NCBI GenBank assembly: GCA_965178125.1
Contig: OZ237736.1
Coordinates: 1,364,001-1,428,000, forward strand
Direction: 5' to 3'
Length of the DNA: 64,000 bases
Origin: Bilabrum cf. latius
Lineage: Eukaryota
Within the stretch, counting starts at the first letter, position 1, and the number at the start of each line of letters is the position of its first letter. The position numbers and the translations under genes are program-made. Under the pieces are notes generated by a model. The model was not told the DNA's origin. It made no database searches and worked only from the letters and a program-made list of their open reading frames with translations. Shown in pieces: positions 744 through 64,000 of the stretch.

Positions 744-2638
744 ATGGATGCGAAGAATGCCTAGCTGGCATCGTCACTTGTAAAGTCTACATACATTGAG
801 CAGGGAATGGCAAACGTGGTCCGATTGAATCAGAGGCTAAAGGAACTGTTGTCACAATAGCGGCTTCCACCGGAGGGCTGGAGTAGCGATGACGTCGAAA
901 CTTTGTTGCGGCAATTAGGTACGATGGACTCAAATAGTTTTCAAGGCAGTGTCGGCGCAGGGGAGCGTGAAGGCAGAGTTGCGTGCGAACTTGTCCACCG
1001 TCGACATTTCGGCATGGCTCACGGAATTGGACGTTCTGGTGACATTGCCGCCGTGCAACCAAAGGCGGCAGGGTCTTCCATACTGAATATGCTTGTGCAC
1101 AAGCTTGCGCTGTAGGTAGTTAAGATTGCTGGCGTGACGCGGGCAAAGTCGTGCCTGGTGTTGCCAACTGCAACTGGGATGACCTTAACTCTTTGTCTGC
1201 TGGCGTTGCGAGCCTCTCGGCCCAAGGGCCGGTTCGTAATATGGCCAAGAATTGATCAGAAGGCTTGTTTCAAAAGCATTTGCACGAGTGGAGCCGAGCC
1301 CATCATCATTTAGGCGGCAGCTCGTGGGGTGGGTGGTGCTGGCGCCGCTGCTGCTGGAGCAACGCCGGCGCGGGGCTCTGAAGATGAGCTGCGCACGGAC
1401 CTTGAGGCAATTAAAAGAGCTATCGCCGAGCACGGGGCCGATAACATCCTATGCGTGATGAGCACGAGCAGCTGCTTTGCTCCGCGCAGCCACGATGACC
1501 TGCAGGGCATCGCGCGGATCTGCGCCAAGGCGAGCGTCCCGCACATCATCAACAATGCGTACGGCCTGCAGGCTGGCCGCATTACGCACGTCATCAATGA
1601 AGCCTGCCGAGTCGGTCGAGTGGACGCCTTCGTGAGCTCAACGGACAAAAACCTCATGACCCCGGTGGGGGGGGCCATCGTGAGCAGCCCGAGCAAGGCC
1701 TTCATCGAGAGCGTCTCCACGACGTACCCAGGGCGCGCATCGGCGGCTCCTCTGGTGGACGTATTTGCCACCTTGTTGAACCTCGTGAGTGTCTCCGACG
1801 CTTTTCCGCACCGTGAACACCCTGCAAGCTCTCCCTCCGTCGCCCAGGTGCCTATACCATTACTATTGTTATTTTTCTTTCAATAATTGTGTATCCGCGA
1901 TCACGCGCGCAGGGTGCCAACGGCTACAAGAAGCTGCTGGCCGAACGCAAGGCCGCCTTCAAGCATCTCAGGGAACAGATGGAGGCGTGGGCCAGCAGGC
2001 ACGGCGAGCGAGTCCTGGACACCCCCGGCAACCCTATCTCCATCGCAACCACGCTCTCTGCCATCGTGGAGCGGTCGGGGGGCAAGAGCGCGACCATGTT
2101 CGGCGCCATGCTGTTCCAGAGAGGCGTGTCGGGGGCCAGGGTGGTGTCACCGGGGGCCCGCAAGGAGATCGCGGGGCACGTCTTCGAGCACTGGGGCTCC
2201 CAGCAGGTCGGCTTTGAGGTGCCCTACTTCACCGTGGCGGCCGGCATGGGCTCCACGGTCGAGGAGATCCCGGTGCTGATCGCAAGGCTGGACAAGACTG
2301 TCAAGGCGTTCTGCGGGAAGGCTTCGGGGGCTGGGAAAGAGGAAGAGGGGAACGAGGGGGCAGCAGGAGGGGAGCTGGGATTGGAGGGTTCTGGAGCAGG
2401 CGGGAGTGAACCTGCCGAAGGAGGTTAGCCGCCACATGTGCCAGCGCGTGGCTCCGAGGAGGGAAGGAAGGCGGACCTGCGCGGTGCAGCTGCAGCGGGT
2501 GGAGCGGAAGATGCTACTGCAGGCCCCGAGGGGCATTTTGGGCAGGCGGGGGGGCAGGCTGCCGGCACTGGCACCTCCGGGACATTCAGCTCCGCGTCGG
2601 AGCGGAGCAGCGGTGCCGCCAGTGGGGCGGGTTCCTGA
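744..2638 (+). CDS. SEPSECS: O-phosphoseryl-tRNA(Sec) selenium transferase (SepSecS); exons 744-1784 and 1913-2638; in-frame TAG read as sense
   Basis: Motifs [65 protein letters not shown] and YPGRAS. In-frame TAG at 762, 858, 1113, 1311 and 2426. GT-AG intron 1785-1912. Ends at TGA. Confidence 0.95.
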
Positions 2639-2791
2639 AGGCATCAAGCGTGGGCACCAGTTCTACTAACCCCTAGCGTGTATTTGTGCTTCCTTTGATG
2701 TGATTTCTGCTGCGGACTTGCCGTCTGATCGACGTTTGGAGGAGTGCTATGGGATCCCGTATGGCAGATACACAAGTCTTTGCAACTTCGC

Positions 2792-3362
2792 TTAACGCCG
2801 CCCCCTTCCGCGCCCACGACCCCTACCTCGCCCACGCCCTCTTCCTCTACCTCTTGCTGCTCCGGCTCGTGCACGAGGCGGGTTCTGGTTTTGACTGTCA
2901 TCTACAAGCAATGTGTCCAAGTTCAGAGAATCTGGCAGCAGGACGCACCTAACGTTGTTGCCGCGGATACTAATGGACTCGAGGGAAACTGGATCACGGC
3001 CCTTGACTATCATCTTCACTTTCTTCATGTGCATATTCATCTTCATATCAACACCTGCAGATGCGAAACAGTAGCGAAACATCGTGCAAAAAGAGGATGG
3101 GAGATTGCAGTCCTGTGGCGAAACAGCGCGCCATCAACCGGGGAAACTCACCGCCAACTGTTCCATGTACTGTGGTTCCATTTTTCAATTCAACCGTGAC
3201 CGTCTCTTTGGATAACTTCATCAAAAACCTGCGACAATGCAAAAGAGAGGCTAGCCCGTGCTGGCCTGCATATCATCAAACTTGCAAACAACGGCAAAAT
3301 TTGGGCTGTAAACTTTGTTGCTACAATAGAATAGTGCTAGAATCTCACCGAACTAGCTTCAT
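2792..3362 (-). CDS. SNRPD1: Small nuclear ribonucleoprotein Sm D1, 3 exons
   Basis: [23 protein letters not shown]..|[25 protein letters not shown] plus an RG-repeat tail. Two GT-AG introns (about 3229-3348 and 3055-3151). Ends at TAA. Confidence 0.95.
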
Positions 3363-3527
3363 GGCTGCCTGGGGTCGCAGTATTGGCAAAGCTTACATTT
3401 GACGGAACCAGCGGCAATCGCCGCGCAATGTCTTATTTATCCCGGAATCAAAACTAAACTGTACGCTTCATTTGACACGTCGCGATAGGTCGCACCACGT
3501 TGCATCTTGACAAATATTGTCAAAACC

Positions 3528-9312: not shown

Positions 9313-12300
9313 TCACCCCACGCACCTTGGCGAGCCACCCTCTAGCACGACCTTGTAGCCAATGCTGGGGTCCAGAAGCATGGATTGCGACACTACCACA
9401 ATCGCCCGATTCATGGTGCTGCCCACTGCTGTGGCCTAAGAGCGCTTGTTGGAGCTTGCGGTAACTCGTGCTCCGCCTCTGCTGACCCTCGCGTGAAACG
9501 CGGCCGCTCCTTCCGCGCCACGAAGGACCTTCGATGCATGCAACGGGTCCACTACCTGCGCAAGGGCAAGCGACTGCCTTGCTATCTTGGATCGAACCAA
9601 GGGTGCATCTTCCTTGCGCTCCTGCACCGCGTGGCTCGCAGCCGCGTACGCGTCTCGCTTGAAGTCCGTCGCGGACATCCCTCTGGACAGCCCACTCGCG
9701 CCCACAACCTGCTCCAACTCATCTCCATCTTGAAGCCTCACAGACTATGGTCTGCCGCTCTGGTTGAGCACTGCTTTGGCCTGCCCTGCCATCGTCAAGT
9801 GCGCGCGTGCAGAGTGCATGCACCGTTCCCCGACGTCTGGACCAGTCAGCCTCGTATCTTGGGCATCCGGATGCGCCCGTGCAGACGCAGGGGCACCGTG
9901 CGTGATATCCTCACCGAATACGATGCTCCTAAAGTACCGATTCAGCTTGGAGCAGCGCGTAGGCCCGGCCCTGCTCGACTCTGTCACCAGTTCTGCCTGC
10001 CGCAGAGCTCTTCGCAGAGGCAACTCACGGGTATGGCGGACTCGGCCGAGATCAAGCGCTGGCACTGCTCGAGTAGCACGACTCGTGCCAGCGTATGAAT
10101 CGCGAGCAAGTTCATGACTTTTGTCGCGCGTTGCTCTTTGTCTACTCTCATGGGTGCCCATGGGATCGCGCCCTTGACCGCGAAGCGAAGTCGCTGCAAC
10201 TCTGCCTCCACGGTGAATAGAACGCCGCTCAATGTATTCGGCAGCTGTCAAGCCAGCACGCAGCCTGTTCCGAGCTCGCCAGCCTGCCACCGTAGCCCCT
10301 TGCGTTAATACAGGGGATGGTGAGGCCGAGCCCCACGCGCGCATGCCAACATCGTCGGATACATGCTCTTCCTCTCGCAGCACCAATCCTTTGGCCATCT
10401 ATGACGGTGGCTTGAGGATAACTTCGCCGTTGTGTGCCACCCTAGGCGAGCTGTCACCGACTTGCCCGTCCGTTCTGGAAAATGGCATGCTATCATTAGA
10501 AGCACGGTCATCATCTCGCCATTGCAACTGGAAATCTCGCTTGAGGCCTTGGCCGTTCTACTCGCGGCTAGCACCGGGGACTGGCGGGCTTCTGGGTAGG
10601 TCGGACTGGTTTACTGCTAGTGCTGCAGCCTTCTTGTGAGATTGCTCTGCAACCGGTGATCCCTAAGCCTGCTCGTTTCTAGATCTTTTATCGACGGTCG
10701 CACCTCCGCGATCACTTGCAGCGTCGGTGTTGCTGCCGGCACCGAAAGCAGCAGTGTCGTCGCTGCTAGAGCTGCCCGTGTCTGCTCGCTCGGCTGCTTG
10801 TTTGAGATCGTCGCCCTGGCCTAGTGCTGCGCGAAGCCTGCGGAGTGTTTCGATTGATGCCTCTGCAGCAGCAAGCGAAGCACCAGCGCCAGCGCCAGGG
10901 CCCTGCTCTTGCTCCTGCTCGAGGGGATTCTGCTCGCGACCTTCGTGGTTTTGCAGTCGATGCATCATGATGGCGGTGCGCGCTAGAGCCTTGACCACAC
11001 TCATGCGACGCACGCGGGCATCTGGCAGCATCTCTGCCTTGACTCTGGCACGGTCCACACTAGACTGTAAAGTTCCTCCGCCCCGCAAAGAGGCATCAGA
11101 GTATTCTGATTGAGGTGTGAGCATTGACGCCCTCGCTTCGGAACCTGCATGATTCTCTGTACGTGTGTCGCTACGGCTGCTTGGCTTGCACATTCTTGCA
11201 ACTAGCATTGCCCGCTTCATTACCCGCTTGTACTTGGAGCGCAGATCCTCTGACATGTTGCTGCGGTGCGGACCCTGGACATGGATGCCATCGACATGTA
11301 TGCCATCTGAGGGACTCTACCCGGGGCTTGCCTGCACGGAATCCACCCCCGACGCTGCTGGCTCGCTGAGTCTGCGTTCCCGCCACGATCGAAGGACGTC
11401 AGACGCATGCACGCCGGTTCCAAGCCCATCATCATCGCCATCGTCCGCGTCGACTGCGCCGTGGGTCTCCACCAAGACCTCTGCAGCCAGACTCATCCTC
11501 CGATATCTAGTGGGGACTCGCTGCAGTCGGACGCGTAGCTGCTCAACCGATGAATCCTTACGACTCTCACCACCCGCCGCAGAGGTTGGAGTTGAAGGGG
11601 CGGAGCCTTCGACCTGTCCTATCCCTGTCACCGGCTTCTGCATATGATCACTGCGGGCAAGGCCTGCCTCGAGCGGCTCTCGAGCGGCCGGTCCCTCGCG
11701 GCTGGGGGTGGATAGGTTCGTCTCATCCAGTGACTGCGCGACAGCATCGCTGGGTCCAAAGTTTTCGTCGACCGGTTGACTTGCGTACACGGGCACTCCC
11801 TTGACTGGGTCGATGGACCTGCCTGCTTCCCCAAGCGAATCATCGCCAAGAGCAGTCGCACCGCCCTTGGACACGGCCTCAAGGGCACGCGCATGCTATC
11901 TTCTCTCTTCCTCCTGGTCCTTCTCAGCCGAATGCGCAGAGCCCTCGCTGCTGCGGCCCGACTCACTTCCTCGTGACACGGTGGAAGCAACCGACTTTTC
12001 GTCGTAGGTATCGCGTGGACCGGGAGCAATGGCACCGTCCGCGTGCACGCCGCCATCGTCCTGTCCGTCAGTATCCACTGCCACCGCTCCGATCTCGGAG
12101 TCCAGGCGCTCCTTCGCAGACTCTGAAGACAGCAGGGGGTGGCGCTGGCCGTCCATCTCGGAGCCACCAGGGCGAGATGGCGCATCTTCTCCTGCCTCGC
12201 GAGACCACGGCGGCGGCGTACCCTCGGATTGCCGGGGCCGGGCTCGCGCCGTGAGCTGCAGGCGGCGCCGTCTCGACGTTCCGAAACCCGGTCGCCCATT

Positions 12301-13615
12301 CGAGTCCGCTGTCTAAGGCGGGACGGGGCGGCCACTGGCGGTTCGGCTCGGATGTCTCATCGAGGCGGTAGTGCCGAGTGGCTTTGCCGTGGCCTGACCC
12401 ATCGATCTGCCAAGCTGCAACTCGCTACCGACGAGAGCGGCAGCTGATCCCCGGTGTCCGCTGGAAGCCTACGAGCTGCGCGATCTACTGAGTCCCCCGG
12501 GGCCAGCAGCCGTGGTCTCCACAGCTGCCATGGCCCTCTGTAGCATCCGCTCCGCCCTGTTCTTGGCTGCCTGAGACCTACTCAGCCCGCCATTAACCGC
12601 CACAGATGCCCCCCCCCTGCCGCCTTCGCCCCCTCCTTCTCGACCGAACCCAACGGGCAGCCCCGGACGATTCGCAACCTTGAAGTCAAAGCGACCGACG
12701 GTGATCTTCCGCATGAGCTTACGGGCCACCTTGCGAGCCGCAGCGATCGTCCCGAATCCACCCACCGTGGCTCGGCCCGGAACAGCGGTGGAAGACCTAG
12801 ATAACGATGCCGCGCTACCTCTCCTGTCACCACGTGATGCAGCTGTGCTGCTGGTTGTATGCCTCAGGTTCCCCTGGTTGCCCCGTGTCCCAGTCGTGGT
12901 CTTAGCCGTGCTCCGCGGGCCACTGGATTTCAGTGCCTTGATCGTGTTGACTAAGAAGGCCACGTATTGCCGCTTGCTGATCCCCTTGGTCCACACGTCG
13001 ACCAGGGCGAAGATGGCATCTGCAAATTCCATCCAGCCGAGGGGCCCGCCGCTGCGGCGAGCGCTGTCGCGCTGCCAGTCTTCCGTCTCTAGCTTCTCAC
13101 GCTCAGTCGCCGATATTCTTGGGAGCATGTGATGGATGATACGCCGATGAAACTGCAAACAATACAGGAAAATGTGACTAGAATCTGCTTCATGAACACG
13201 GGGGAAGTCATATTCTATGCAATCAGTGCTAGTGTCTCACATTCGCATATGACTCTCTGCTGACACGACCGTCTTCATCACAGAAGTCAACGTACAGATC
13301 ATACAATAGCTACTGGACTACTTTGTCCTTCCGTAGGTGCTCTCGTCGACGCAGTGCATCTAGCGAATAGAAGTTCATGTTGGCGTCTACGCCTTCCAGC
13401 GCAACCTTTTTCAGTGCAGCCTTCCGTACAGCTTCACGTCGCTCCACACGAGCACTCAAGTTATCACCCCACTGTCCTCCAGCCCTTTTTGCCATGACCA
13501 GACTGGCAGCAAAGGACTCCACTTTCTCTCGTCCGTGCTGCAGTACCCACGGCTTTCTGGTCCCCACAGACTGAGCCAAACCTGAGTCTCCAAAGCTTGA
13601 GTGCCTCCAGCTCAT
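9313..13615 (-). CDS. Hypothetical protein of about 1400 aa with an N-terminal EF-hand-like region and a long low-complexity tail; exons 13241-13615 and 9313-13152
   Basis: ORF-track pieces 13310-13615, 12469-13158, 11896-12156, 11317-11874, 10663-11256, 9745-10398 and 9436-9741 join through about 10 TAG codons and one GT-AG intron (13153-13240). Contains DFCDEDGRVSRESY and EFADAIFALVDVWT. Ends at TGA. Confidence 0.7.
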
Positions 13616-13814: not shown

Positions 13815-15446
13815 ATGGAAGTAGTGAAAATGGTCGAATTGAGTGTAAACCAGTATGTTACACTTGCAATCCTCCTTGCGCAGAACGTTATGGTGTACTT
13901 GTTATTGCATGCGGCCCACGAAGAGCCCAATGCTGATCAATGGAGCAGACTGTCCTGCATAATTCTGCAGGAGTTTGGCAAAATTATTGTGTGCTTGATT
14001 GTTTTGTGGAAGGATCACGGATGGAGTGCAGCAAGACTGCTCGGCACCGTCGTTCGTCTATGCTCAGCGGAAGCAGCCGAAACGATTCAGCTTGCTATTC
14101 CAGGGATACTGTACGCGGTATCAAATCTTGTGTTGTACTATGGTATCGAATATCTAGGTGCGCCAGTGGCTCAAACTCTGGGCCAACTGAAGATCTTGGT
14201 TACAGCGGCCCTTGCGTCCGCCATCCTGCAACAGAGATTTTCTAGCATGCAGATTGGCAGCCTTGTTGGCTTGGCGGTAGGCGCTGGCATGGTAACTGCT
14301 GGGGATCATGTGTCCAATTGGCTGCGTGCTGCGCAACAGGCTGAGCGCGATGCGTTCATGGGCGATGAAGCTGCTTCCATTGGATCCGCAGGCGACCAGG
14401 CCGGCGAGTCGCTTGGGGTGGCAGCGGTGCTTTTGAATTGCCTGTGCGGAGGTCTGGCTAGCATCTACTTCGAGTATATCTTAAAACGCCCGAACAGGCT
14501 CGCTAGAACGCTTGATTCACGCCCTCACATCGGCAAGGTTGCAGGCGGACACAATCAAGTTCAGCCGACTTCGCCACCGCGAACAACAGACACCGAGATG
14601 GGAATCCGGGGAGAACCAGTCGCGCCCACGGGGAGCAACAGCAAAGAAACCCCTGAGGAATCTCCGGCAGGCGCGGCCTCTCCGTCCAGGGTGTATGCAG
14701 GCCGAGCAGCCGAGTCGGACTCCTCCGAGGCCTCCGGACAAGAGGGCCAGGGCCAGGGCTGTGAGGTGATTTAGGCGGAGCCGCAGACCTAGGACAGGAG
14801 ACGGGTCCCCCGCAGGCCCCCGGCAGCCAGTGATTACGGCAATGGCAGCGATTTTGCGCCGGACCTTGGGGAGGAGGAGGCGCGAGAGAACTGCGCAGGA
14901 GTGGAGGAGGGGAACAGCGGAGTTTTGTCTCGTTCGATCCACGCAGTCGCTGCCACTACCAGCGACAGGAGCACGGCTGCCAAGGGTGCTAGGGTGAAGG
15001 GAGATAAGGGAGACAGGGTAACCGTCTCTGTATGGACGCGCAACCTGCAGATGTCTGCATGGGGCCTCTGCTTCGCCTGCTGCACCGGGGCGCTGCAGAG
15101 GGACTTCAGGAGCCGGCTGCTCGACCCAGCTCGCGGGGTCACGTTTGGGTTCACGCCGACCGTGTGGGCAGCTGTGACCAATCAGGTGCTCGGCGGCATC
15201 GTGGTCGCGCTCGTGATCCGGCAGACGTCTAACGTTGCGAAGAACTTCGTCACTTCGGTGGCTATCGTGGTGAATGCGGGGGCTAGCTACTTGGTGTGGG
15301 GCGACAGGCTGTCGATTTGGTTTGCTCTGGGGGCTGGATTAGTAAGCGTGTCGACGGTCGGGTATGCTGTCGGGAGTCCTTAGGCTGGCAGGGACGGAGA
15401 CAAGGAGGTTCTGCGTACAACCAGCAGGGGAATGGCTGTATCATGA
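13815..15446 (+). CDS. SLC35A-type nucleotide-sugar transporter with a large low-complexity insertion
   Basis: IPGILYAVSN, QLKILVTA, GLASIYFEYILK, SVWTRNLQMS and GGIVVALVIRQTSNVAKNF. TAG at 14772, about 14790 and 15381 read through. Ends at TGA 15444-15446. Confidence 0.9.
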
Positions 15447-47900: not shown

Positions 47901-50900
47901 GTTGATGTTGCGACAGAACCGAACGCGACAGTCTTGGCGAAGTCGGTGCGCACGTCTGTAGAAGCGCCATTCGTGTTGGTCACCTGCCTGTGCGCGAACA
48001 CTCGCTGGAAAAAGTGGGCTCGTCGCTGCTGGCGATGGCGCTCGTTGTAAGATCGCTTGTCCACGACACTCGGGGCGGGTCTCGCTGGTGGGACGGCAGC
48101 AACGTCGTGGACCGCTCCGAAGTCAGCCGCGCCCTCCATTGCTGGGGCCGCCCCTGCTGCCATTGCCATTTCAGGAGCTCCGTCTGCCATGGCCATCATC
48201 GGGACCGGGGCACCGAAGGCTCTGTCCATGATCTCACCTCGAATTGCATGCATGCGCTACATCTTCATGTTCGCGGCACCCCCACCTCCGCGAGCCATCA
48301 CTAAGCCAGCTGGTCTTACTCCAGTTGCCGATGCGTACATGATGTCTGGCGAGTAGCCCGATACGCTCGAAGTGGGCGCAAGACACACCGCTCTTGCAAT
48401 TTTCTCAGCATCCTTCCTGTCCTTGGAAGGAACAAACAACCGCTTCCAGTGCAAGCTAGCTAGCGTCTGCTGGCTGCTCTGCGAGTCCGCTCCCTCATTT
48501 CCATGGATGCCACGTGAATCGCCTTCACCGGCTGATTCCGGCGCACTGCCGGCATGAGGTCCAGCCCTGGATATCCCAGGCATTCCGATGGGACCTCCTT
48601 CGTTGCCATCGCCCTAGCCAGCTGCCTCCTCCGCCAGTGCATCGCGATCGATCCCAATGTCTGCGCCACGACCGGCAGCGAACACGGGGCGACCACCAGG
48701 CGTCCCTCCGCCGCGCTGCTGCGGTATGAACCGAGGCCCGCTAGGGGCGAGCGGTGACAGCGCGCCTGCCAGATCCGTGTACACGAACCTGCGCCAGCCC
48801 TGGGTGCCCAGCAGCAAGTCGGTGGCGTCAGCAGGCGACGCACCCCGATCTCCTTCCTCTCCCGTGGCTGCCTGCCTCTCGGACACGCCGCTGCCAGGGA
48901 ACACACTCGCAAGATAGGCGCCTGCGTCGGGGAGGGGAGCGCCGAACGGCTTGCCGCTCAGGGCGTCTACCTCGCTCTCGAGCAGCAGCTGGGCCATGGG
49001 CCGGGGCTGCCACCGGCGGCGCTGCACCCGCGAGGTCTCCTGGTCATCGACCACGCGGACCAAGATGAGGGAAGGCGTGTCCTGTCCTCTAGCGCGTGCA
49101 CGCACCGAGAGACTGACGGTGGCGCCAGGTGCAAATGCCGGTGGCTCGTTGCGCGCGGCACCGGCCGGGCCTAGCTGTCCGACGGCAGGCATAGACTCCC
49201 ACGAGCTGTGGCTGATCGCATCGGTGTTCTTCGTGGCGAGCCCGTCGTAGCTCGTGGCGTATTGCATCTGTGACGTCTCTAGCTTGGTAGGCGCGTCCAT
49301 CTCGGTCACTCGCGCGTCGAGCTGGACTCGGCTGGATTCCGGCGGGGCCCGGAATACCAGCCTCTCGGCGAGCGGTGTCCCCGTCTCGCTCTCTACCACC
49401 GTGATGCGCAGCACGCCGACCGCTGAAGAACTCAGTTGGGGCACCAGGTTCACTGCAGTGCTTATGGGCGCCGTGCCCTGTAGCGTCACACCGACCTGGC
49501 ACAGCATCTGCTCCTTCTTGTACATTCCGACAGTCACGTGCCCGCGGTGCGTGGAAGCCAGCAGCACCTTGACCGCGCTTTCTCCGTCATACATGCTCTC
49601 AGGTGCAAACATGGACACGCCGAACGGACGGGGTGCCTGCAGGGGCAGAGTCCGAGCCGCAGAGTCGGGCTCCAGAATCCTGAGCTCGAGCTGGCCCGCA
49701 CCTGAGGGAACAACGAACACCGGAGTCACGCCACGGCCTTCGTGCTGCGTTCGTGCAGCCACGATACATCCGCTCGGAGCCGCCACGCCTCCCTCCCCTG
49801 CTCCCCGCACGCCGCCGCGGGAGGAGGGTCCCGCGGCGCCATCTCCGCCGTCCCTGCCCAGCGACAGGAACTCGCCCAGCGAGCCCATGACACCGCCTCC
49901 GAACGAGCCGCTGGGAGCATTGCCCTGCAGCGGCGCTTGGTCCCCGGCGGAGCACACCGCCACTGTGACGTCAGCCGGGTCACCACTCGGCAGAGCAGCT
50001 TCGAAGTACACGCGGCCCGGCAGGCCGGCCACCAGCTCTCCTCCCTCGGGGTATGCCAGCACGTCGATGGCGCGGGTCGCGATGGGAATCGCGCGAGAGG
50101 ACGACTCTACCTGATTCGTTCCGCCCGCCGCCCTGTCCTGGTCGAAGACCGTTACGCTCAGCGTGTCTGCGCCACTGCCGGCCCCGGGTCCGAGGGGCGC
50201 GGGCAAGGTGAACTCGAGCGCGCCCCTGCCAGCCGCATCCAGCACCACCTCTCCCTGCCACACCTCCTGCCCGCCCACGCGCGCACTACCGCTGACTCGC
50301 GCCCGCCAGGCAGGCGCGCCCGAGGACCTGGTGGCCTTGATCGATGCGCGCACGGCGTCCCCCTGGCCGTAGGCGTCCTTGTCGAATGCGAGCTCAACGG
50401 ACATGAGGCGGTCCCTGCTCGCGAGAATCACGATTCGCCTCTCCACGGAGGGCATGGTTACCCGCATCGCTTGCGCGCTTGCGCCGCCCTGCCCTGCAGG
50501 CTGCTGCACCACTACTCCCTGGGCGTCTGCTAAGGTGACCGCGATCGTGTACTCGCCGCCCGGCTGGGAGTCGCTGGTCTGCCACGCAGCGACGAGAACT
50601 CCGTCGGTCGATTGCAGCGATACCTTGCTTGGTGTGTTGCCCACATTTCCTCTGCCCGAGTTCCTTGGATTCGAGCTACCAGGGGTGCCATCGGCTTGCA
50701 TCGTGTCCGAGAAGACCACACCACCGGCCGCATCCTTCACCTGCACGGCGAGGCGCGGCATCTTCACCATCGGAGGGTAACCCCCAGACTCAATGGCGCT
50801 GCTGGCGCGAGGCGGTGCAAATGTTATCGGATCCACACACTGCACACGGATGAGCACAGCCTGCCCGGGCTGATACTGGTCAAGGTCCGTGCTGATGTGA

Positions 50901-50947
50901 GCTTGAAGCCGAAGGGACTGCACAGACTCTTTGATCATCTCCTGCAA
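44948..50947 (-). CDS. Alpha-2-macroglobulin-like thioester-containing protein (about 2000 aa; 5' end unresolved)
   Basis: MG-domain motifs ISTDLDQYQPGQAV and AYPEGGELVAG; VRTDFAKT..LPDTIGRFRI; thioester PHGCFEQ; GGFEWFG; HEALTAYG; GRFGTTQATVLAL; C-terminal SKAYLYY. Five ORF-track pieces are joined in frame by 7 TAGs. Ends at TGA. Confidence 0.88.
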
Positions 50948-51463
50948 ATATCTAGGGTGGAATCAGACTGGAATTACAGTATGCTGTGCCACGACAAACG
51001 GGACCTCGGTCCTTCCGAGTCCGAAAGATGTGTTGCTCCAAAAACTGCTTCGGAATGATCCACCAACGTGTGCTCTCACCGCCGCGTCGTGATTCGACTC
51101 AGACTCGAAAGTCACTGATTTCCCAAGCAATTGGTCCAGTGGCGGACCAGGTCTGCACGAGAGAATGGAAAGGTGCTCCAAATGAACATGCTCCAATGCT
51201 ACAAGATAGCCTACAATTATTCCGAGGTGCGTTGGCTTACCGCGGGGATACTAGAGACACTGTACGGAAAACGGCCATCGTCCCCAAAAGTGTTACGAGT
51301 AAGGATGACCCTATGGTCCACACAAGGCATTTCCGAGAGACCATTGTAAACAAAAATGGGGCGTTTTAAACCGAAAAATTTGGATGAACACAAGTGCTCG
51401 CTACTGCTAAAATTTAACCGGATGTATTGCAAGATGCAACACTTCACTTTCCTCGGTAGAGAA

Positions 51464-54181
51464 ATGGGAAATGCGGACTCAAGACCCGGAAGTGTACCAA
51501 TTATAGCTAGGCCTAGCCTTCCAGGAGGAAGTAGCAGGCCTCCAGTTCCGTCTACCTCCGAGATAGCGAAGCGATTGCGAGCAGCACTCGTAGGGCAAGA
51601 TCGGTCGTACTGGCTGAGAACGTATCAAGGAGTCATGTTAGGCAATGAAGTAGTAGATTGTTTGGCTGCGCAAGATTGGGCAGAGTCGCGCGAGCATGCC
51701 CTCACGGTGGGGCAGCGGCTGGTGGATGGAGGTGAGATTGGAAGAAGCGTCACACAGCAGCATTATCTGCCGACGCACGAAGCCAATGAAGGCGATCGAT
51801 TCTATCAAACTCGGTTGTTGATTACATGTGTTGCTATTGCTGTGTACGCTATTGCATAGAGGGCAAGTCTGTTTGCGGGTCACACCGTTCATTCCGCCTC
51901 TCGAAGGCGACGTGGCAAGCAGTGCGTCGCCGCATTTCCGTACGGCTCACGTGCCAGGCCTTTGAATTGACCTTTTGTGGCTCGCATGTAGGATCCCCAG
52001 CGATAGGCATGTGTTTTCATCTCATTGCAACGTTGCCGAGCAACGATCCGGGATGCGAGATCCATAACCAGTCCAAACACATACCCTCTCTCCGCCGCAG
52101 GATTCATTCACCACGTAACGCACGACCACCCGTTAAAGGACAAGCCCTTTTTCTACCGACATGCCGGCGCGGTGGCCCCTGATGACCCGCGCCTCAACGC
52201 CGTGGAGCGGGCGGCGATGGAGTACGACCTGATCGTGATCGGCGCGGGTTCCGCTGGGCTCACGGCCGCCAGCTTCGCCGCAAAGATGGGTGCCCGCGTG
52301 GCGATGGTGGAGAAGAACCGCCTGGGAGGGGACTGCACATGGACTGGCTGCGTACCGTCCAAGACCCTCCTGCACATCGCCAAGGTCGCGAGGACTGCCC
52401 GGCGGGCGTCCACCATGGGCCTGGGCGTCTCGGTGGACGAGGGGGCGGTCAAAGTGGACATGAAGAAGGTCCGCGACAAGATCATGTCTGTGATCCACGA
52501 GATATACGCGGAAGAGACTCCGGAGCAGATCGCCCACAAGGGGACGGGCGTTGACGTGGTTCTGGGCGAGGCGCGGTTCACGGGGCCGCACTCCGTGGTG
52601 GTCAAGCTCAAGAACCCGGAGCAGCCCATCGTGAGCGCGTGTGCATCCAAAGTTGGAGGGAGCGCTGCTGCTGCGGCGTGCAGCGGTGGCGAGGCAGCCG
52701 AGGGAACAGCCTCCTCCAAGGAGCCAGGCAACCCGGCATCAGCCGCAGCAGCGGGCCGGTCGGGAGCAACGACGGGTAGTGCAGGGGGTGGGGCCGGGGC
52801 CGGCCAGGCGCCGCCCAAAGCTGAGACAGGCCCCGACGGAAAGGTGCTGCCCGGCCACAGGCATCTGACAGGTAAAGCTTTTGTCATCGCAACTGGGGCC
52901 GTGCCATCCATCCCCGCATTGGCTGGCCTCGGCGAGGTCGAGTACCACACGTACGAGTCCATCTTTGAGAACGACAGGCTGCCCGAGCGCCTGTGCGTGC
53001 TCGGAACTGGACCCATCGGGTGCGAGCTGGCGCAGGCGTACGCCTATTTGGGCAGCAAGGTGACGATATTCGGCCGTCACCTGATGGGCAAAGAGCACGA
53101 GGGCGCGAGGGACGTGATCCAAAGGGTCTTCGAGAGAGAGGGCATCGAATGGGTGCCTGAGAGGCCCACCCGGGTGGACAACTTGGAGAAGCTGGGGAGT
53201 GCGGGCGCAGGCGATGGAGCTGGCGCCGTCAGTGTAACGGGAAGCGGGCAAGGGCAGTTGCCGTCACAAACAGGAGAGGAAGGGGGAGGCAAGGCGCCGT
53301 ACAAGCCGACCATCGCGGTGACCGCCGGCCGACGGCGAGTCGTCTGCGACATGCTTCTAGTGTGCACGGGCCGCCGCAGCAAGGTGGACGGCATGGAGCT
53401 AGGCAAGGCCGGGGTCACGCTCAGCGCGAAGGGCGGCCTCAAGGTGAGCGATTACCTGGCGACCAACGCGCCGCACGTGTTTGCGTGCGGGGACTGCATC
53501 GAGGACATGCCGCAGTTCACGCATCTCGCTGGCAAGCAGGGCTTCGTGGCCGCCCGCAATGCGTTGTTCCCTGGGCGCTCCGTGGGCTGGAACGAGACTG
53601 TGGTGAACCCCCGCTGCACCTTCACAGACCCAGAGGTGGCATCGGTGGGCCTGTAGCCCCAGCAGGCGGAGGCCTTGCACGGGGCAGAAGACGTCATGAC
53701 CGTGCGGCGGGCCAACGGGAAGATCGACCGGTCCCTGTGTGACGACGACGTCCCTGGGTTCGTGGAGATGACGGTGAAGCGGTCGGACGGCTCCATCCTC
53801 GGGGCGACGATCGTGGGGCAGCGGGCGGGCGAGCTGGTGAGTGAGGTTGCACTGGCGATGACCAAAGGTCTCAAGGCGGCGGACATCGCGCTGACAATCC
53901 ACGCCTACCCCACGCACAGCATCGGCCTGCAGCAGGTCGCGAGCGAGATAGGGAGCGCGGTGTTCAGGGCAAGCACAGTGGGCCGCATCGCATCGAGCCT
54001 CTACTCCAAGGCAAGGATCGTGAGGGACCACTCCTCCCTTGCCGTGGACGAGCACGACGAGGGCCTCGCGCAGGCAGTGCCCATGCCGCTGCTCGAGTCC
54101 ACCGAGGAGAAGGCAACCGCCGCCGACGCAGGGGGTGCGAGCAGTGGCGCTGGTGCGGGCCTGGGGAGCAGCGGGCCCTGA
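51464..54181 (+). CDS. DEP domain + class I pyridine nucleotide-disulfide oxidoreductase (DLD/MerA-like) fusion; exons 51464-51731 and 52101-54181
   Basis: MGNADS start. DEP motif QDRSYWLRTYQGVMLGNEVVDCL..SREHALTVGQRLVDG|GFIHHV..HPLKDKPFFYR. Oxidoreductase motifs YDLIVIGAGSAG, GGDCTWTGCVPSK, GTGPIGCE, FTDPEVASVGL* and IHAYPT. TAG at 53654. Ends at TGA. Confidence 0.88.
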
Positions 54182-54242: not shown

Positions 54243-55709
54243 ATGGGGCGGTACGGCAGCGGCCAACCGGACCGCCGGCGTTCATCCAAATTCAAAACCG
54301 GAACCGCCGCCAGCGAAAGCCCAAAAACTTTCACTCCAAAAATGCGAGCCGTCAGCAATGCTTCTCGAATAACCATGCAGCTTAGCGAATCTTGGCTGAG
54401 CAAAGCACTTGCTTCGCGCCGTGCGGTACTCCCAGATGGAGCTCTCGCAACGCAAGAGCACCTCGAATCGTTCATGCAGGCATGCTCAGAACGATACGGA
54501 ATCGCTCGGCTGGATTCAGCCGAACGCTCTAATGTATCAATACAACTTGCTTATAAGGAAGTTAACGAAGAAATCGGGGGGCCCCTGCAGCTTGAGCGGG
54601 GGATCGTTGGTCAGTCGATACGTCCAGTGGTGTTGCCTGCGGCCCGGCTTGTGCACCGCATCAACGGAAACGTGTCGTCCGTTGACGCATGTCTGGACAG
54701 TAAGAGGCTAAAGTCAAGAGTAAGATCCATGATCCACCACATGCCGGGCCTGCTCAAGGCGATTGGCTGGAGGAAAGGCAGGGATAGAACTGTGCTAGAT
54801 TGCACCGGCGGGCTGGGGCACGATGCCGTTGCCATGGCAAGCTTTGGAGGGACGCGGGTGGTTACTGTAGAGCGACACCCTGCTGTTGCTGCTATTTTAG
54901 ATATCGGACTCCAGCGGATGCAGCACGACAAGGACTTTGTGGACATTTTCGACGACGGCCGTCTGCAGCTGCTGCACGATGACGCGAGGCAGGTGCTCCG
55001 GAGGATGCTCAGGCGAGAGCTGTCGGGGAAAGCGACCCAGGCTGCTCGACCGGACATAGTCTACATGGATCCGATGTTTTCGCGCGATTCAAACAACGGC
55101 AAGGCCGGTCGCGCAGCTCCCAAGTCGGGGTCCCAGATCCTGGGCGCAATCGTGCGGTCCGACGAGCAGCTGCCTGGCAGTGGCAGCGGCGGCGCCTCCG
55201 GGGCACGGGCGCGAGCAGTCGTGTTGCAAGAGGAAGCGGAACAGCTCGAGCTCCTCCGCCTGGCCCTGCTCGTCGCCAAAGAGCGTGTCGTGGTGAAGAC
55301 CCACAAGAGCCTGCCAGCTATCAGCGGGCACCTGGAGCCGATCGATGGATCCAGGTCACAGGGGGATGCCGACAGGATTGAAAATACAGTCGGTATCGAT
55401 AGCACTTTGCATGGTGACCTTACAAACCCGCAGCACCTGGTGGCCCGGACCGATGCCTTGCAGCAGATGCAGAGCAAGGCGCCCGTGCCTCGACCCATGT
55501 TTTCCGTGCCGGGCAAGTCTGTGCGCTTCGACGTGTTTCGAACGCACAGCAAGTCCAAGCGAAAAGAGCTGCTGCAGGTAGTCAGAGACACTGGGATGCT
55601 GGCACCGTCGTGGGCCGCCTGGGCTGGGAACGCGGCGGGCGCGCAGCTGACCGACGGCGGCGGGCGCATGGATCCTGGGGAGGATTCGATTGACTTTGGT
55701 CGATAGTGA
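54243..55709 (+). CDS. rsmJ: RsmJ (YhiQ)-like SSU rRNA m2G methyltransferase; start codon uncertain
   Basis: VLDCTGGLGHDA, VERHPAVAAILDIGL, PDIVYMDPMF, AKERVVVK and RFDVF. Ends CGA-TAG-TGA. Confidence 0.8.
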
Positions 55710-55769
55710 TACCTTGCACAGCGATTTTATTCCCTACTACGAATGCGTGGTCATGACCTTGCCACCAAT

Positions 55770-57390
55770 TCACCTTGCATCCCCTGCCTTGCCGTTCGAT
55801 TTGCCAGCGGACCCGAGCAGCCACCCCTGCAGCCCCTTGAGCTTGGGTGCCTCCGACCGCCCAGCCGCCCGCTAGGCTTTGCCAGCCGGTGCTACCCTGC
55901 GCCGTTGCGCCTCGGGTGTGCCTTTCTCGACGTCTAACTCACCCCGTTGCTTCCGCTTGTCGCCAATCTTGCCGCCAGATGCAGCGGCCGTGCCATCCAG
56001 CTGGGTCGAGCCCCCCTCTGCATCGCTGGGCGCACCAGATCCATGCGATCCAGAGGTGGTTCCTTCGTCCTATTGCTATTTCTAGCGCTGCCGTGCCACG
56101 TGAAACATCATACCGATGTTTCCGCTGCTGGATCGAGAGGCAGGGCGCCGCTTGCTGCCACTGGCGGCCTCGCCAGAGCCAGGGCTGCCAATCGGCGCAG
56201 GCGTACCACCGGCAGATGTGGGCGGGAAACAGCTGCGCCACGGAAGCAGCGCCTTGTACCTAACGTCTACTGCCTTGGCTGCCGCAACAGCGGCGTCGAC
56301 TCTGGCAATGTACCGCTACAAGCCCCTGCCGTACTTGCCCCCTAGCCCTGCCTTGGTCATCATGCGCACAGTGCCTGTGATTGAGCGCTCGGCAAACCTG
56401 GACCGTCCCTTTCCTTGGTCGTCAGCCAGACCCAAGCACCAGAGGATACCGGCATAACCGTTCGGGTCGCGGCCGTCCAGCTGCCACTTGTCGTTTAGCC
56501 TGACTCCCCACTCAAACGCAGTCCTCGCGTCTGGGGTCCACAGCAGCAGTGCCTTCATCCAGTACATGCGCATCCTCCCGTGCATCCTGCCGGTGGCCAC
56601 AAGCTCTCGCTGGGCCGCGTTCCAGTATTCGTCCCCCGTCTGTGCCTTTTCTAGCTAATCGTACGTGTAGAGCACCGGCCTCGCGTCGACCTCGTGGTTC
56701 TCAAGCGTGTGCCGGGCCCAACCAGGCAACGCTTCGTATCTGTCGTACACGTCGGGAGCTCTGAGAACTAGGTTAATCGACTTCTCCCGCCAGACAAACA
56801 CCTCTTGGAGCCACTTGTCGCAATCAACTTGCGATGGGCCGGGGTCTGCAAGACTGCGGTGCCCAGGCCCAGCTGCCTTGGTACCGGCAGCAGCTTGCGA
56901 TCGGCCTCGTCCTTCCCTCTGGGCTGCCCTTGCCTGCATGATTCGCAGCGCTGGGATGATCTCGAGAGGAGAGAGGTGCCCAAAGTGAAGGTATGGGCTG
57001 ATGCAGCTCGTGTGGCCCTCCCCTGGGTCGTTTCGGTGGGCAGCATACCCTGCCAGGCCCCTGCCTCGCTGCACCGCTGTCGCGATCGAAGCGTCCCGCA
57101 CCTGCTCCTTGCTGGGGTCGCCGGGTTCGCTACCAGCTAGAGAGGCAAGGCTGCGTCGAGACCTCGGTGCCATCAAGAAAGCTCGTAGCCACGCCCTGCC
57201 GTGTCTGTACCCTCCTCGAAATGCATGCTTGGCGGCAGGCACGTTCGTGTCAACCTGGGGTAGAACCCAGTTCATGATTGCAGATACCACCGCTTCCCAT
57301 TCGTCCCAGCGCCAGTCAAGCCAGGCCTGCGGGTTAGACGGTTCTGTCAGGGTAGCCTATGGTGGCGCCTTTTGCTGCTTCTCTAAGCTA

Positions 57391-57434
<44 letters not shown>

Positions 57435-58391
57435 ACTGCTCTCAATTGCCGCTGACTGTTGAGCGTCATTGTCACTTGCTGAGTGCCACTGGAGCCCCTG
57501 CATCAGCAAGTCAGGGTGCTGTCGGGCTGCGGGTGCACCACTGGCAGAGCCTGGCGGTGTGCTGCTGGCAGCTGCAGGTCTGCTGGCTGCTGGTGCTGCC
57601 GATGCGCGTGGCAAACTGCTGTCACCTGCTCCATCGCTTGCGCTCAAATGCAGAGCTGCATGATAACTTAACCAGTTTACATCAGCGCAAACCCACCTGC
57701 ACGAACTACAAGCAGCAGACTGCTTGTCCCCTGCCTAGTCGCCGGTGCCCACGCCTGTTACAACGCCGGCCGAACCGACAGCTTCAGCTGGAGGTAGCCG
57801 TGTGCTAGTTCTTGCATGGGCGGATAAGCTGCAGTGCTGCGGGGCCCAACCTGTAGGCATCACTCGATTAAGGCCGCGGAATAACTTGGTGCGCAGCGAG
57901 GCCGCTGTAGGCTCGAGGCGGAGGGATGCAGCGTCGGTCGGGCATGCCACGTCACCCTCCACCTCCCAGACATGTCTGGCAAATTCAGCGCCTCGAAGCA
58001 GCCTCCTCCACGCTCGGATAGTTCGCTGATATCCCGCATCCATAACCAACTCGTGTGCTTGTATTGCCTTGCATAGGGCAGGTACCACAGCTGCCGGGTA
58101 CCCGTGAAGTACGATGCATCGGATTCCTCTACTTCGCAGGGACAAGGCGGCATCTGCAAGACCTTCGGCCAAGAATTGAAATGATCGTTCGTTTGCCCCG
58201 GGATACCTTGGCTCGATGCAGAAGCATACGAACAGCCTGAGTTTCTGATCGGATGCTAGCTTGATTGCTAGCTCAAGCGCTGGATTCACGACTGCTCGGA
58301 CAGATCTTTGCATCCAGTAGAGCACCGATCGAGGCGCATCCTTAGGTTTGAATGATGATGAGACGTCGCGCCTGGTCCTGCCTTGCCACAT
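55770..58391 (-). CDS. phr: Class II CPD photolyase with low-complexity insertions and a C-terminal extension
   Basis: VLYWMQRSVRAVVNPAL, ISPYLHFGHLS, TGDEYWNAAQREL..GRMHGRMRMYW and LNDKWQLDGRDPNGY. Single frame through TAGs at 57735, 57357, 56655, 56316, 56082, 56076, 56070 and about 55873. Ends at TGA. Start uncertain. Confidence 0.9.
57393..57440. repeat. (CTG/CTA)n microsatellite encoding poly-Ser in the photolyase
   Basis: Run of gctgctgct... in the sequence. Confidence 0.85.
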
Positions 58392-58539
58392 CCGAACTGG
58401 AGATAGTGTTTGCACTTCTATTCACGGTTGCAGCACGGAACTGCAACTGCGTTTAGCCCGGGCCCCAGGCGGTCTTGGACTGCAATACACTACACTCACA
58501 AGCAAAAGCTAAAGCAATGACAAACATAAAGACATGCCG

Positions 58540-60992: not shown

Positions 60993-61265
60993 ACAGTATC
61001 GTGCAGGCCGAGCTGTCTGGTGCAGTCGTGTTGGGATGGTGCAGTGTGAGGTGAAGCGTCATCCTCCAGCCAGGACGGCAGTGGGAGCCTTTCGTTGTCT
61101 TGAACCTGACAAATAATGAATGTGAAGCGTGCCTATACGTTTGTTTGATCGGATCGAAAGCCTGCATAGTTTGTAGCGCAGGTCAAAACACATCGCCAGG
61201 GGCACCCATGCCCACCCCTGCACACACCACCCACACCGAGCTTCCTCACCAGGCCTGCCCCTCAC

Positions 61266-64000
61266 TCACTTGCCCTCAGTGGAAGGCTTCACCTGCGAGG
61301 CAGACGCGATGGAAGCGGCCCGGTCCTATCCACCCCGGGCGCCAGCCGCGGACAGCGCCGTGCCTCCAGAGCCAGAGCCAGCTGCAGCCCCGCCGCTTGC
61401 CGCCCCGCCAGCAGCCATCCGAGCCACCCGCTGGAATCTCGTCCGCAGGAACCTGCGTGTGTCTCCGGCACTGAGGTCTGCCTGCCTCTCTCCGTGGTTC
61501 TCGTCGCCCGTCTGCTGCACTGCGAGGTTCATGTTGGAGCCGGCCGAGAACCGCTGCACGACCTCGTCGCCCTCGCCCCGCTTCTCCACCTCGTCGATGC
61601 TGCCCATCACGATGTCGTCGTCCGCCAGCTTGCGCAGGCCGACCGCGTCCCTAGTGAGCCTGCCCTGCTGCACCAGGTTGAGGATTCTCTTCCGCACCAG
61701 CAGGCTGTAGTAGAAGTGGTACGGGTACTGCAGGCGGGTCCTCTCCTCCTGCGCCAGCTTCTCCTGCATCTGCGACTCGATCGGGTGCAACACCAGCGCG
61801 GCTTCCTGCTCGGCCCACGTCGCGTCCACGTCGTCGGCGCGCATGGTGCCGCCGGTGACGAAGGCCTTGGTGAACAGGTCGGACCTGTCGAAGCGGATGT
61901 CGCTCTTGATTAGCCTGCGCCTGTACTCGTCCACGGTCTCACCCGTCTTGCGCCTCCGGATAGTGTCATCCGACTCGACCTGCGGGGCGAACGTGTCGTC
62001 CTGCTGCCCGTTGCGGATGAAAAACTCGCTCTCGCGCACCACCATGGCGTAGGTTGGCAGCAGCACCGACTGCACGAACTTGACGAGGAGGGTGGGGATG
62101 AGGGACAGGAACACAACCATGGGCACGGTGAACCAGAAGGCCGCGCTCCCGAAGACCTTGCTCATGATCCCCTTGGAGCCCTCGGAGTCGAAGTAGTCGA
62201 TCAGGTACGCCACGGCAGGCCAGGAGGCAGTGCTGAGGAACGTGAAGCACACAAAGATGATCTCGTGCTGGTAGGTCTCGATGGCGATGCGGATGTTCAC
62301 CACGCACACCACGATGCTCATGAGCACGCTACCAAACCCAAAGATGCTGGCAGTGTACCCGTCAGGCTGCGCGGACTCTCCCATGGCTAGCACGCACAGG
62401 AAGAAGATCAGCAGCGACTCGTACACAGACTGGAAGAGCCAGCGGACTGCCACGTAGGAGTTGAAGTGCTTGCGGAGGCGCCCAGAGCTGTACAGGGCAG
62501 GGAACCGCTGCGCCGAGTCCTGGTCCACGTCCTGGTCCATGGCTCCCACCGCAATGATGGCCACGCCAGTGAACGTCATGTTGTAGGCCTGTGTGGCGAA
62601 CTCGGGGAATACCTTCTGTCCGGACCAGCCCGTGTAGATGTTGTACCAGTACTGCACCAGCGTGAAGAGGCTGTTCTTGTAGAAAACAACCAGGATGAGG
62701 ATGGCCATCCGCATGTAGTTCCAGCGGCCGTGCACCAGCAGGAGCTTCTGCAGGAAGCGGAACTGGCCGAACGAGTAATCGGAGGCGTTGGCGGCGCTGT
62801 TGCCCTCCAGCCCCTCGATGCCCACCCCCACGTGCGCCGCCGAGATCATCTCCACGTCGTTGGCGCCGTCGCCGATGCCAAGGCAGCACGAGTTGGGCAC
62901 CTCATACTTGACCAGCTCAAGCACCGTGCGCTTCTGTGAGGGCTAGCAGCGTGCACCGATCACGCTCGTGCACCGCTGCAGCATCTCAAGGAAGGCCGCC
63001 CTGCGGTCCCTCTTGAAGTCGAGGTTCTTGGACATGACGCCGTTCGGGTACTTGGCCGTGTCCGCCTCGATCTCCTCGTAGCCGGGCCAGTCGAGGAAGA
63101 AGCTCATCGAGCCCTCGTCCACGACGAGCGCGAGGGGTCGGGAGTTGCCGCCAGCGTACTTGACGAGCAGCATCACCAGATCAAAGGCAAGCACCCACTC
63201 CACCACGTCGCGCTTGTCCTGCGCGGCCTTCTCCTTGTTCTTCTCCGTCTTGGCAGCGCGGACCCTCAGGTCCACCTCCTTGATCTCGCGATAGAGACCC
63301 TTCACCACGGACTGCGCCGCGTTCAGGACAGACTGGCTGACTCTGCCGTCCTCGCCCCGCGTGGGCACGAGGAAGTCCCTGAGCTTGGTCAGCTGCGTCT
63401 CGCGCACCTTGCCATACGGGAGCGGGGAGCGGCCGAGCCCCATCGCTGGGTTGCTCATCGGGCTGACGGCCGCGCTGTCCCGCCGCACCGAGTCGAGCTC
63501 AGCGAGGGGGTTGGGCGACCGGTGGTTCCCGGGCGTGACTCCTCCTTCCTCCAGGTCCGCGTCGGGGGACTGCGACGTGGCCTTATCGTCGGCCGCCACC
63601 TTGCGCGAGAGGGCCGAGTGAGGCGAAGGCGCGTCCCCACCGGATGCAGCCGCAGCCGCGCCCCCCACACCCCGAGCGGAGCGCATCTTCGGCCCCCCGC
63701 CGAAGCTGGAGCTGCGGCTGGAGCGGCGCAGCGGGTTGGCATCTGCGTCCACGAAGGCCTGCCCCTTGCTGAGGGCCTTGTCCACCTCGCGCAGCAGCGC
63801 GCGCTCGAACCGCAGCGGGTCCCGGTTGCCCGCCTCGTCATCGTCGTCGCCAAAGAGCTTGCCGTAGCGCCACTCCCAAGTTAGCTTCTGCATCTCAGTC
63901 TCGCTCGTGAGCATCTGCACGCCGTATCCGATGTTGATGGCCGTGCCCTCCTTGTCTCCCGTGAGCATAAACACGCTGATGCCCGCGTCCGAGAGCCTGG
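61266..64000 (-). CDS. P4-type phospholipid-translocating ATPase, 3' part; continues beyond the window
   Basis: MLTGDKEGTAINIG, VIGARC*PSQK, LGIGDGANDVEMI, GVGIEGLEG, QFRFLQKLLLVHGRWNY and FYKN. TAG at 62943 and 61326. Ends at TGA 61266-61268. Confidence 0.93.

Follow-up and report, generated by a model that had tools for sequence, protein, structure and literature searches.

Can a eukaryotic nuclear genome give UAG a meaning as a sense codon and still end its genes at UAA and UGA? Nuclear codes seldom change, and changes that uncouple UAG from UAA are rarer still. The question is raised by a stretch of 64,000 nucleotides from contig OZ237736.1 (Bilabrum cf. latius; GenBank assembly GCA_965178125.1, forward-strand positions 1,364,001 to 1,428,000), here called the window, with coordinates counted from its first letter. 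An earlier note, made from the letters alone, had reported in-frame TAG in many otherwise intact genes of this DNA. The window has a G+C content of 61%; both of its strands encode eukaryotic nuclear genes, whose GT..AG introns are few and short. In these genes, UAG stands in frame inside conserved, expressed sequence, is kept in mRNA and is interchangeable with CAG/glutamine (Gln) between this organism and its relatives. We consider it very likely that the window comes from the nuclear genome of a eukaryote rich in GC (61%) and poor in introns, whose cytoplasmic ribosomes read UAG as Gln, with UAA and UGA ending translation.

TAG inside conserved and expressed genes

Pfam and PDB searches of the window's proteins identified an EGF-domain protein, SepSecS (4 in-frame TAG), SmD1, a nucleotide-sugar transporter (3), a weakly COG2-like protein (10), a PH-domain protein (5), a lipoate-protein ligase, two tandem FSP1/AIFM2-like oxidoreductases (8 and 4), a bacterial-type A2M/TED protein (7, the number counted previously), a MerA/glutathione-reductase-like enzyme (1), an RsmJ-like methyltransferase (1), a class II photolyase (8) and the C-terminal half of a P4-ATPase (2). 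The TAG in these genes amount to 53 across 11 Pfam-identified genes. When TAG is read as sense, 19 long open reading frames (ORFs) taken as genes contain 91 TAG, a total that includes a few outside coding sequence (three upstream, at 3312-3527, and two in the MerA-like intron, 51730-52098). This agrees with the earlier note, which had claimed about 20 genes on both strands with in-frame TAG and conserved frames intact. Frames of at least 500 codons number 12 under standard stops and 25 with TAG as sense; the gain in ORF length alone is not decisive, since reading TGA as sense also lengthens frames in GC-rich DNA.

The decisive count was restricted to spans that homology brackets on both sides, as given by Pfam or PDB alignments or the proteins of relatives; these comprise 6,797 codons in 14 genes. 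These codons include 32 TAG and not a single TAA or TGA, and the two other frames of the same DNA contain 92 TAG, 40 TAA and 232 TGA. By our own arithmetic, the chance that 32 of 32 in-frame stops would be TAG under the off-frame ratio is ~1e-19. The reconstructed exons had been described as free of in-frame TAA and TGA, and comparable genome-wide numbers of both had been named as a finding that would speak against a code change; in the bracketed codons of the window both counts are zero.

The same spans contain 220 CAG and 52 CAA codons beside the 32 TAG, which makes TAG about one tenth of the Gln codons. When all window genes are compared, TAG use declines with rising G+C content at third codon positions (GC3). 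The gene at 3528-8918 (GC3 0.82) has no TAG in 1,797 codons and the P4-ATPase (GC3 0.89) has two in 910 codons; the COG2-like, photolyase, SepSecS and PH-domain genes, with GC3 of ~0.6, have 9-17 TAG per 1,000 codons. Thus, in the window genes TAG behaves like a non-preferred Gln codon.

Four sequencing runs (X6, X8, X9 and X11) were compared with the window over positions 39594-59593. We read run X6 as RNA because its contigs make four GT..AG-bounded skips, have their ends at gene borders, and vary in depth by a factor of more than 100 from one gene to its neighbours (from ~1 to 276, with the A2M-like gene by far the deepest at ~276). Two of the skips, 42571 to 42685 and 51729 to 52099, are bounded by GT..AG as written, and the other two, 50940 to 51079 and 51152 to 51241, by CT..AC, as befits a minus-strand gene; the introns seen in this way are ordinary GT..AG introns of 88-369 bases. 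The automatic label of X6, 'RNA? (probably DNA)', weighs against this assignment, and no run listed as RNA was found among the sequencing runs that hold words of the A2M gene.

Contigs 9-14 of X6 show 0 other letters and 0 gaps relative to the window and cover 13 in-frame TAG: four in the second FSP1/AIFM2-like paralog (contigs 9 and 10), seven in the A2M-like gene (contigs 11 and 12), one in the MerA-like gene (contig 13, which is spliced) and one in the RsmJ-like gene (contig 14, which spans 54348-55737). Because spliced contigs are identical to the window over these 13 TAG, editing, micro-introns and assembly error are excluded at those sites. The earlier note had proposed looking for TAG in mRNA and had held that reads without the TAGs would count against a code change; in the contigs of X6, read as RNA, the TAGs are retained at all 13 sites.

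The residue read at UAG and the codons that end translation

Relatives of the A2M-like protein were sought by searching its C-terminal 1,200 residues against 1.84 billion representatives. The matches are Logan protein fragments: P0122 is 86% identical, P0123 95%, and P0121 and P0124 45-55%. For the COG2-like protein, a word-based search limited to shorter proteins gave P0271, P0277 and P0272, which are 73-79% identical (P0271 and P0277 77-79%, forming one 90% cluster). Close relatives (77-86% identical) have Q at all three of the window TAG sites that they span. At A2M codon 1758, Q occurs in P0122 (86%) and also in the distant P0124 (51%), and at COG2-like sites 844 and 1069 (TAG 23583 and 24258) it occurs in both P0271 and P0277, which reach the same last residue. 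The reverse case is A2M codon 1927 (45182..45184, minus strand), which is CAG in the window and TAG in relatives through G>A at 45184 (11.4/11.4 in X9, 4.2/4.2 in X11, 6.95/16.4 in X8 and 0/275.8 in X6). This CAG>TAG change is one of 22 A2M coding differences among the 40 of 2,082 difference rows listed, of which 17 others are synonymous and 4 non-synonymous.

In a small sample, TAG and Gln therefore interchange at four sites, and at none of them does a close relative carry another residue. We regard the Q of relatives at TAG sites and the CAG/TAG exchange as decisive, and from these sequence comparisons consider it highly probable that the residue is Gln. Together with the bracketed counts and the RNA contigs, this equivalence upholds the proposal that UAG is a sense codon, most likely for Gln.

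Among the alternatives, the one that survives best, although unlikely, is an ambiguous code, in which UAG would be Gln inside genes and a context-dependent stop for some of them, as in Condylostoma, or would be partially read by a near-cognate tRNA-Gln(CUG), with no tRNA of its own. In three genes a TAG does lie near the point where homology ends: the sugar transporter has one 2 residues past the last aligned helix, the P4-ATPase has one 24 codons before its TGA, and the RsmJ-like gene ends TAG-TGA, as had been observed before (TAG at 55704, TGA directly after). In the photolyase a TAG precedes the TGA by 33 codons. However, UAG makes up about one in ten Gln codons and stands ahead of essential protein parts, at densities of up to 6 TAG in 132 codons; inefficient read-through would therefore cripple many genes. 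In the COG2-like and A2M-like genes, moreover, the sequence past the last TAG is conserved in relatives.

There is a slimmer chance that UAG is sense but encodes another residue, with glutamate (Glu) the likeliest candidate, followed by serine (Ser) or aspartate (Asp). Several observations weigh against Gln here. The columns of distant homologs at TAG sites are mostly not Gln, and all of the residues in them are polar. For SepSecS (120 homologs, mostly animals), the four columns are S/T/N, G/R/K, D in 117 of 120, and E in 117 of 120 (Q in 2); the photolyase column is E, that of FSP1 is Q or E, that of the MerA-like enzyme is S, and the residue opposite P4-ATPase TAG 62943 is T, in a conserved motif. 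A rough BLOSUM62 sum over these distant columns (our own arithmetic) favours Glu somewhat over Gln. The distant A2M relative (45-51% identical) covers six TAG sites and has Q at one; at the other five it has H, D, A, either S or a gap, and a gap, and most of these sites align poorly. Fragment P0123 ends where the window has the Ser codon TCT, for which possible reasons are a TAG, an intron or the end of the contig. Codes with UAG as Glu, Ser or leucine (Leu) exist elsewhere, according to PMC11687900.

Against such a reassignment, the close relatives have Q at three of three sites and never E, S or D, and in the A2M-like gene CAG>TAG occurs among 17 synonymous and only 4 non-synonymous changes; the sample is four sites. 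Among 150 representatives of A2M homologs, no alignment was obtained at the six TAG sites tested, with at most 6 sequences covering any site. As a yardstick for the distant columns, section 7 of PMC5304391 reports that even normal Gln codons fall in conserved columns dominated by Gln only ~44% of the time.

Could UAA also be Gln, as in codes of the NCBI table 6 type, and merely be rare in a GC-rich genome? TAA is indeed the rarest stop-type triplet on the two strands of the window (376, versus 880 TAG and 1,617 TGA), and the predicted proteins of relatives are uninformative on this point, since gene callers stop at TAA anyway. Nevertheless, we judge this very unlikely. From the ratio CAA:CAG = 52:220 with 32 TAG, ~7.6 in-frame TAA would be expected in the 6,797 bracketed codons, where none is observed. 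SmD1 proteins end in an RG tail, and in the window this tail (...GRGRGRGRR) is followed at once by TAA 2792-2794, with no TAA or TGA in the next 64 in-frame codons read. Under table 6 the COG2-like frame would extend 167 more codons. The 15 identified genes terminate at TGA in 12 cases and at TAA in three; as had been stated from the sequence, SmD1 and the EGF-domain protein (TAA 551-553) are among the latter.

UGA is the main terminator, and in the bracketed spans it is never in frame and 232 times off frame. The claim that UAA and UGA remain stops thus stands, both from their absence in 6,797 codons and from the 12 TGA and 3 TAA at gene ends. Since SepSecS is present, the organism makes selenoproteins, and a few UGA sites for selenocysteine may exist elsewhere in the genome; UGA would then hold two meanings, stop and selenocysteine, beside a changed UAG. 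That there is no code change at all, and that the TAGs are assembly or sequencing errors, mark pseudogenes or are removed by editing or tiny introns, has a negligible probability, given that 0.99-1.00 of the words sampled from the A2M gene recur in seven runs belonging to three studies, that spliced RNA contigs match the window over 13 TAG, that relatives also carry in-frame TAG, and that TAA and TGA are absent from the same frames.

If UAG is read as Gln with UAA and UGA as stops, the expected agent is a tRNA-Gln with anticodon CUA, because only a CUA anticodon reads UAG without UAA. By analogy with the mechanism in section 9 of PMC5304391, it would probably be a mutated copy of tRNA-Gln(CUG), and eRF1 would have lost or weakened its grip on UAG and kept its recognition of UAA and UGA. 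A tRNA gene search of the 64-kb window found none, an Rfam search of it matched no rRNA and no other family, and eRF1 is not among its genes.

Genes of the window

The C-terminal part of the EGF-domain protein (2..553, plus strand; Pfam EGF_2 and others) has no TAG. It is followed by SepSecS at 630..2638 (plus strand; Pfam SepSecS, 5.7e-97), which has TAG at 762, 858, 1113 and 1311. Exon 1 runs to 1784, the GTGAGT..CAG intron, located by a frame-preserving GT..AG search, occupies 1785-1912, and exon 2, also supported by Pfam, runs from 1913 to 2635, with the TGA at 2636-2638. Human SepSecS (PDB 7l1t) aligns over residues 45-387, straight across all four TAG. SmD1 (2792..3215, minus strand), recognized in a three-frame translation, has short GT..AG introns and no TAG.

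The TAG-free protein of 3528-8918 (1,797 residues) matched no Pfam family, and a homolog search restricted to proteins of 988-3,145 residues gave nothing at E<=0.001. At 9313..13236 (minus strand), an ORF of 1,307 codons is open only with TAG as sense and ends at TGA; it has nine in-frame TAG (12469, 12313, 11896, 11317, 10663, 10558, 10399, 9745 and 9436), but it belongs to no Pfam family, and its support as a gene is weaker than that of the others described here. The nucleotide-sugar transporter (13815..15446, plus strand; Pfam Nuc_sug_transp, 1.3e-51) ends at TGA and has TAG at 14772, 14790 and 15381. Residues 45-225 and 404-521, the two halves of the fold, align with PDB 6oh4; an insert separates them and contains the first two TAG. 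TAG 15381 is the one just past the last aligned helix.

The COG2-like gene (21054..24323, plus strand) ends at TAA 24321-24323 and has TAG at 21246, 21285, 21411, 21438, 21534, 21639, 22365, 22467, 23583 and 24258. The earlier note had singled it out for 6 TAG at 21246-21641, and this count is reproduced (6 in 132 codons); its COG2 label is weaker, the match to COG2_N being sub-threshold at 20.2 bits versus a cutoff of 24.3. The PH-domain gene (32798..34042, plus strand; Pfam PH, 4.4e-08) ends at TGA and, with its start codon chosen as probably the first ATG, has five TAG thereafter (32828, 32948, 33140, 33203 and 33209). Three in-frame tandem arrays lie inside open frames of the window: 4.8 copies of a 396-base unit at 16785-19233, 10 copies of a 24-base unit at 26451-26696, and 16 copies of a 42-base unit at 38146-38812, encoding GAAWGRPPGEEGTE.

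The first FSP1/AIFM2-like paralog (39594..41756, plus strand; Pfam Pyr_redox_2, 7.5e-34) ends at TGA and has TAG at 39915, 40257, 40539, 41316, 41337, 41376, 41397 and 41424. Its residues 117-389 and 629-695 align with PDB 9ift, so that seven of the eight TAG lie between aligned parts and the C-terminal segment follows seven TAG. The second paralog (42413..44581, plus strand; also identified by Pfam) has a GT..AG intron at 42572-42684, TAG at 42908, 43532, 44177 and 44198, and a TGA at its end. The pair had been described as RGS paralogs that keep TAG at the same positions. Two TAG sites are indeed common to both (39915/42908 and 40539/43532), but the proteins are Pyr_redox_2 oxidoreductases, and no RGS domain was found in them even at E<=1. 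The paralogs are near-identical over ~1.3 kb and 0.3 kb (153 mismatches in 1,917 aligned bases) and differ in a repeat-rich insert. In the relatives sampled by X8 and X11, one contig passes directly from 41359 to 44273 and lacks the 2,913 bases between, as though there were one FSP1/AIFM2-like copy or a recombined one.

The A2M-like gene with its TED domain (44948..51241, minus strand; Pfam TED_complement) has a main exon at 44951-50940, introns at 50941-51078 and 51153-51240, and a TGA at 44948-44950; its seven TAG are at 48614, 48257, 47537, 45689, 45620, 45533 and 45488. The protein is ~2,000 residues long, has a thioester-type GCFEQ motif and resembles bacterial A2M clusters. The MerA/glutathione-reductase-like gene (51528..54181, plus strand; Pfam Pyr_redox_2 and Pyr_redox_dim) consists of an exon at 51528-51729, the GT..AG intron 51730-52098 and an exon at 52099-54178, and ends at TGA; the alignment with PDB 4k8d runs across its TAG 53654. 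In the RsmJ-like gene for a SAM methyltransferase (54348..55709, plus strand; Pfam SAM_MT, 1.6e-27), TAG 55704-55706 is the last sense codon and TGA occupies 55707-55709. This gene and the photolyase gene are convergent, with ~60 bases between their stop codons (55704-55772).

The class II photolyase (55770..58421, minus strand; Pfam DNA_photolyase) ends at TGA and has TAG at 57735, 57357, 56655, 56316, 56082, 56076, 56070 and 55872; residues 25-184, 432-490 and 536-712 align with PDB 8oet, and four TAG are inside this span. The P4-ATPase (61266..63998, minus strand; Pfam PhoLip_ATPase_C, 3.1e-73) is represented by its C-terminal 910 codons, runs off the window and ends at TGA. Its TAG 62943 lies in a conserved CR(V)(S/T)PxQK motif, across which PDB 8ox7 aligns, and TAG 61326 lies in the tail. 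Between these two genes, a 'coiled-coil' ORF on the minus strand (58543-59964; 8 TAG, no family, GC3 0.60) overlaps a TAG-free plus-strand ORF (58651-59304, GC3 0.76). It was excluded from all counts of supported genes, and X6 contigs show several loose ends at 59011-59047.

Relatives and comparison with known codes

Several fragments from relatives break off or divide in a manner that bears on their own code. P0122 ends exactly before the window's TAG codon 1781 of the A2M-like gene, and a single contig of 3,776 bases carries both P0121 and P0124, which divide one gene between them. Run X9 is itself spliced RNA; its source organism differs from the window by ~10%, with 566 other letters over 5,486 bases. 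Because of the end of P0122 at a TAG site, the P0121/P0124 split, and the in-frame TAG in X9, X11 and X8, the UAG code is common to a clade of at least three lineages with some depth and is not peculiar to a single strain. Beside this organism, two or more lineages share the trait, one ~10% divergent in DNA and one ~50% identical in protein.

The relatives occur in runs labelled protist and algae metagenome, and no relatives turned up in Joint Genome Institute (JGI) metagenomes, which were scanned for the A2M-like protein and, by means of an alignment, for the COG2-like C-terminus. As to placement, the best SepSecS matches are animals at 52-56% identity and are uninformative, the nearest atlas cluster of the sugar transporter is dominated by haptophytes, a weak lead and not one towards stramenopiles, and the atlas gives bacterial-type clusters for the A2M part, again a weak lead. 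Whether a GC-rich clade outside ciliates and fornicates, comprising at least three lineages (from ~10% DNA divergence to ~50% protein identity), shares a code in which UAG alone has become Gln is a proposition for which we find the balance about even. A literature search, which did not cover supplements, found no report of a UAG=Gln-only code in a GC-rich eukaryote that is neither a ciliate nor a fornicate.

If there is such a clade, UAG would have been decoupled from UAA independently within a major group of algae or protists, and in a genome whose GC pressure ought to work for UAG as a terminator and not towards its loss. A further case would help to test how eRF1 distinguishes UAG from UAA, and whether the capture of a stop codon needs AT pressure. 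The assets of this one are a GC-rich genome with UGA as its main terminator, living relatives at two levels of divergence, and genomic DNA, from which the predicted tRNA-Gln(CUA) and change in eRF1 can be read directly. There is also a practical consequence. Gene calling under the standard code fragments such genes, and the public proteins of the relatives are fragments (P0122; P0121/P0124), so table 15 is required for annotating this genome and those of its kin.

The earlier interpretation is supported in part: the UAG-only reassignment to Gln stands, and the probable stramenopile source and independent origin are conjectural. The code itself is not new: it is of the Iotanema type, listed as NCBI table 15. 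Only a handful of lineages with codes that separate UAG from UAA are named in PMC11687900 and PMC5304391. These papers assign UAG=Gln with UAA and UGA as stops to Iotanema spirale, and PMC11687900 places the same type of code in Protocruzia tuzeti and two phyllopharyngean ciliate lineages. With Iotanema, a member of the Fornicata, the window shares all three codon assignments, in-frame UAG throughout conserved genes and the predicted mechanism, described in PMC5304391, of a tRNA-Gln(CUA) and an altered eRF1. Neither has a gene that requires UAG as a stop, but for the window this point, which the earlier note had also made, follows from how its ORFs were constructed, and UAG may still end some of its genes. 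In contrast to the window, where TGA outnumbers TAA by 12 to 3, the terminators counted for Iotanema in that paper are UAA in 104 cases and UGA in 15. Iotanema is, furthermore, an anaerobic gut flagellate known from its transcriptome, whereas here the evidence comes from genomic DNA with 61% G+C. Terminator usage and habitat led us to reject Iotanema as the source, although some other fornicate is conceivable.

The likeness to Protocruzia tuzeti and the phyllopharyngean lineages is that UAG is Gln while UAA is not, as described in PMC11687900. The macronuclear genomes of ciliates are AT-rich. From the contrast with the 61% G+C of the window, and from its ordinary introns (GT..AG, 88-369 bases), we infer that the window is not from a ciliate. 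Table 15 opens exactly the same frames in the window as TAG=Q does; according to section 7 of PMC5304391, the attribution of this table to Blepharisma was an error, and we use it as a label, not as a lineage.

With the codes of table 6 (Amoeboaphelidium protococcarum, hexamitids, oxymonads, ulvophytes and many ciliates), the window shares a change from stop to Gln and the reading, here predicted, of UAG by a Gln tRNA, but unlike them it retains UAA as a stop, with no in-frame TAA in 6,797 codons. Amoeboaphelidium was rejected as a match for both code and genome type, since it has UAR=Gln and, in Table 1 of PMC10608142, ~40% G+C, versus 61% in the window. Other UAG-only codes are likewise decoupled from UAA and give the codon to other residues, Leu in the rhizarian exLh, Ser in Scotinosphaera and Glu in an oligohymenophorean ciliate, whereas the relatives of the window show Gln.

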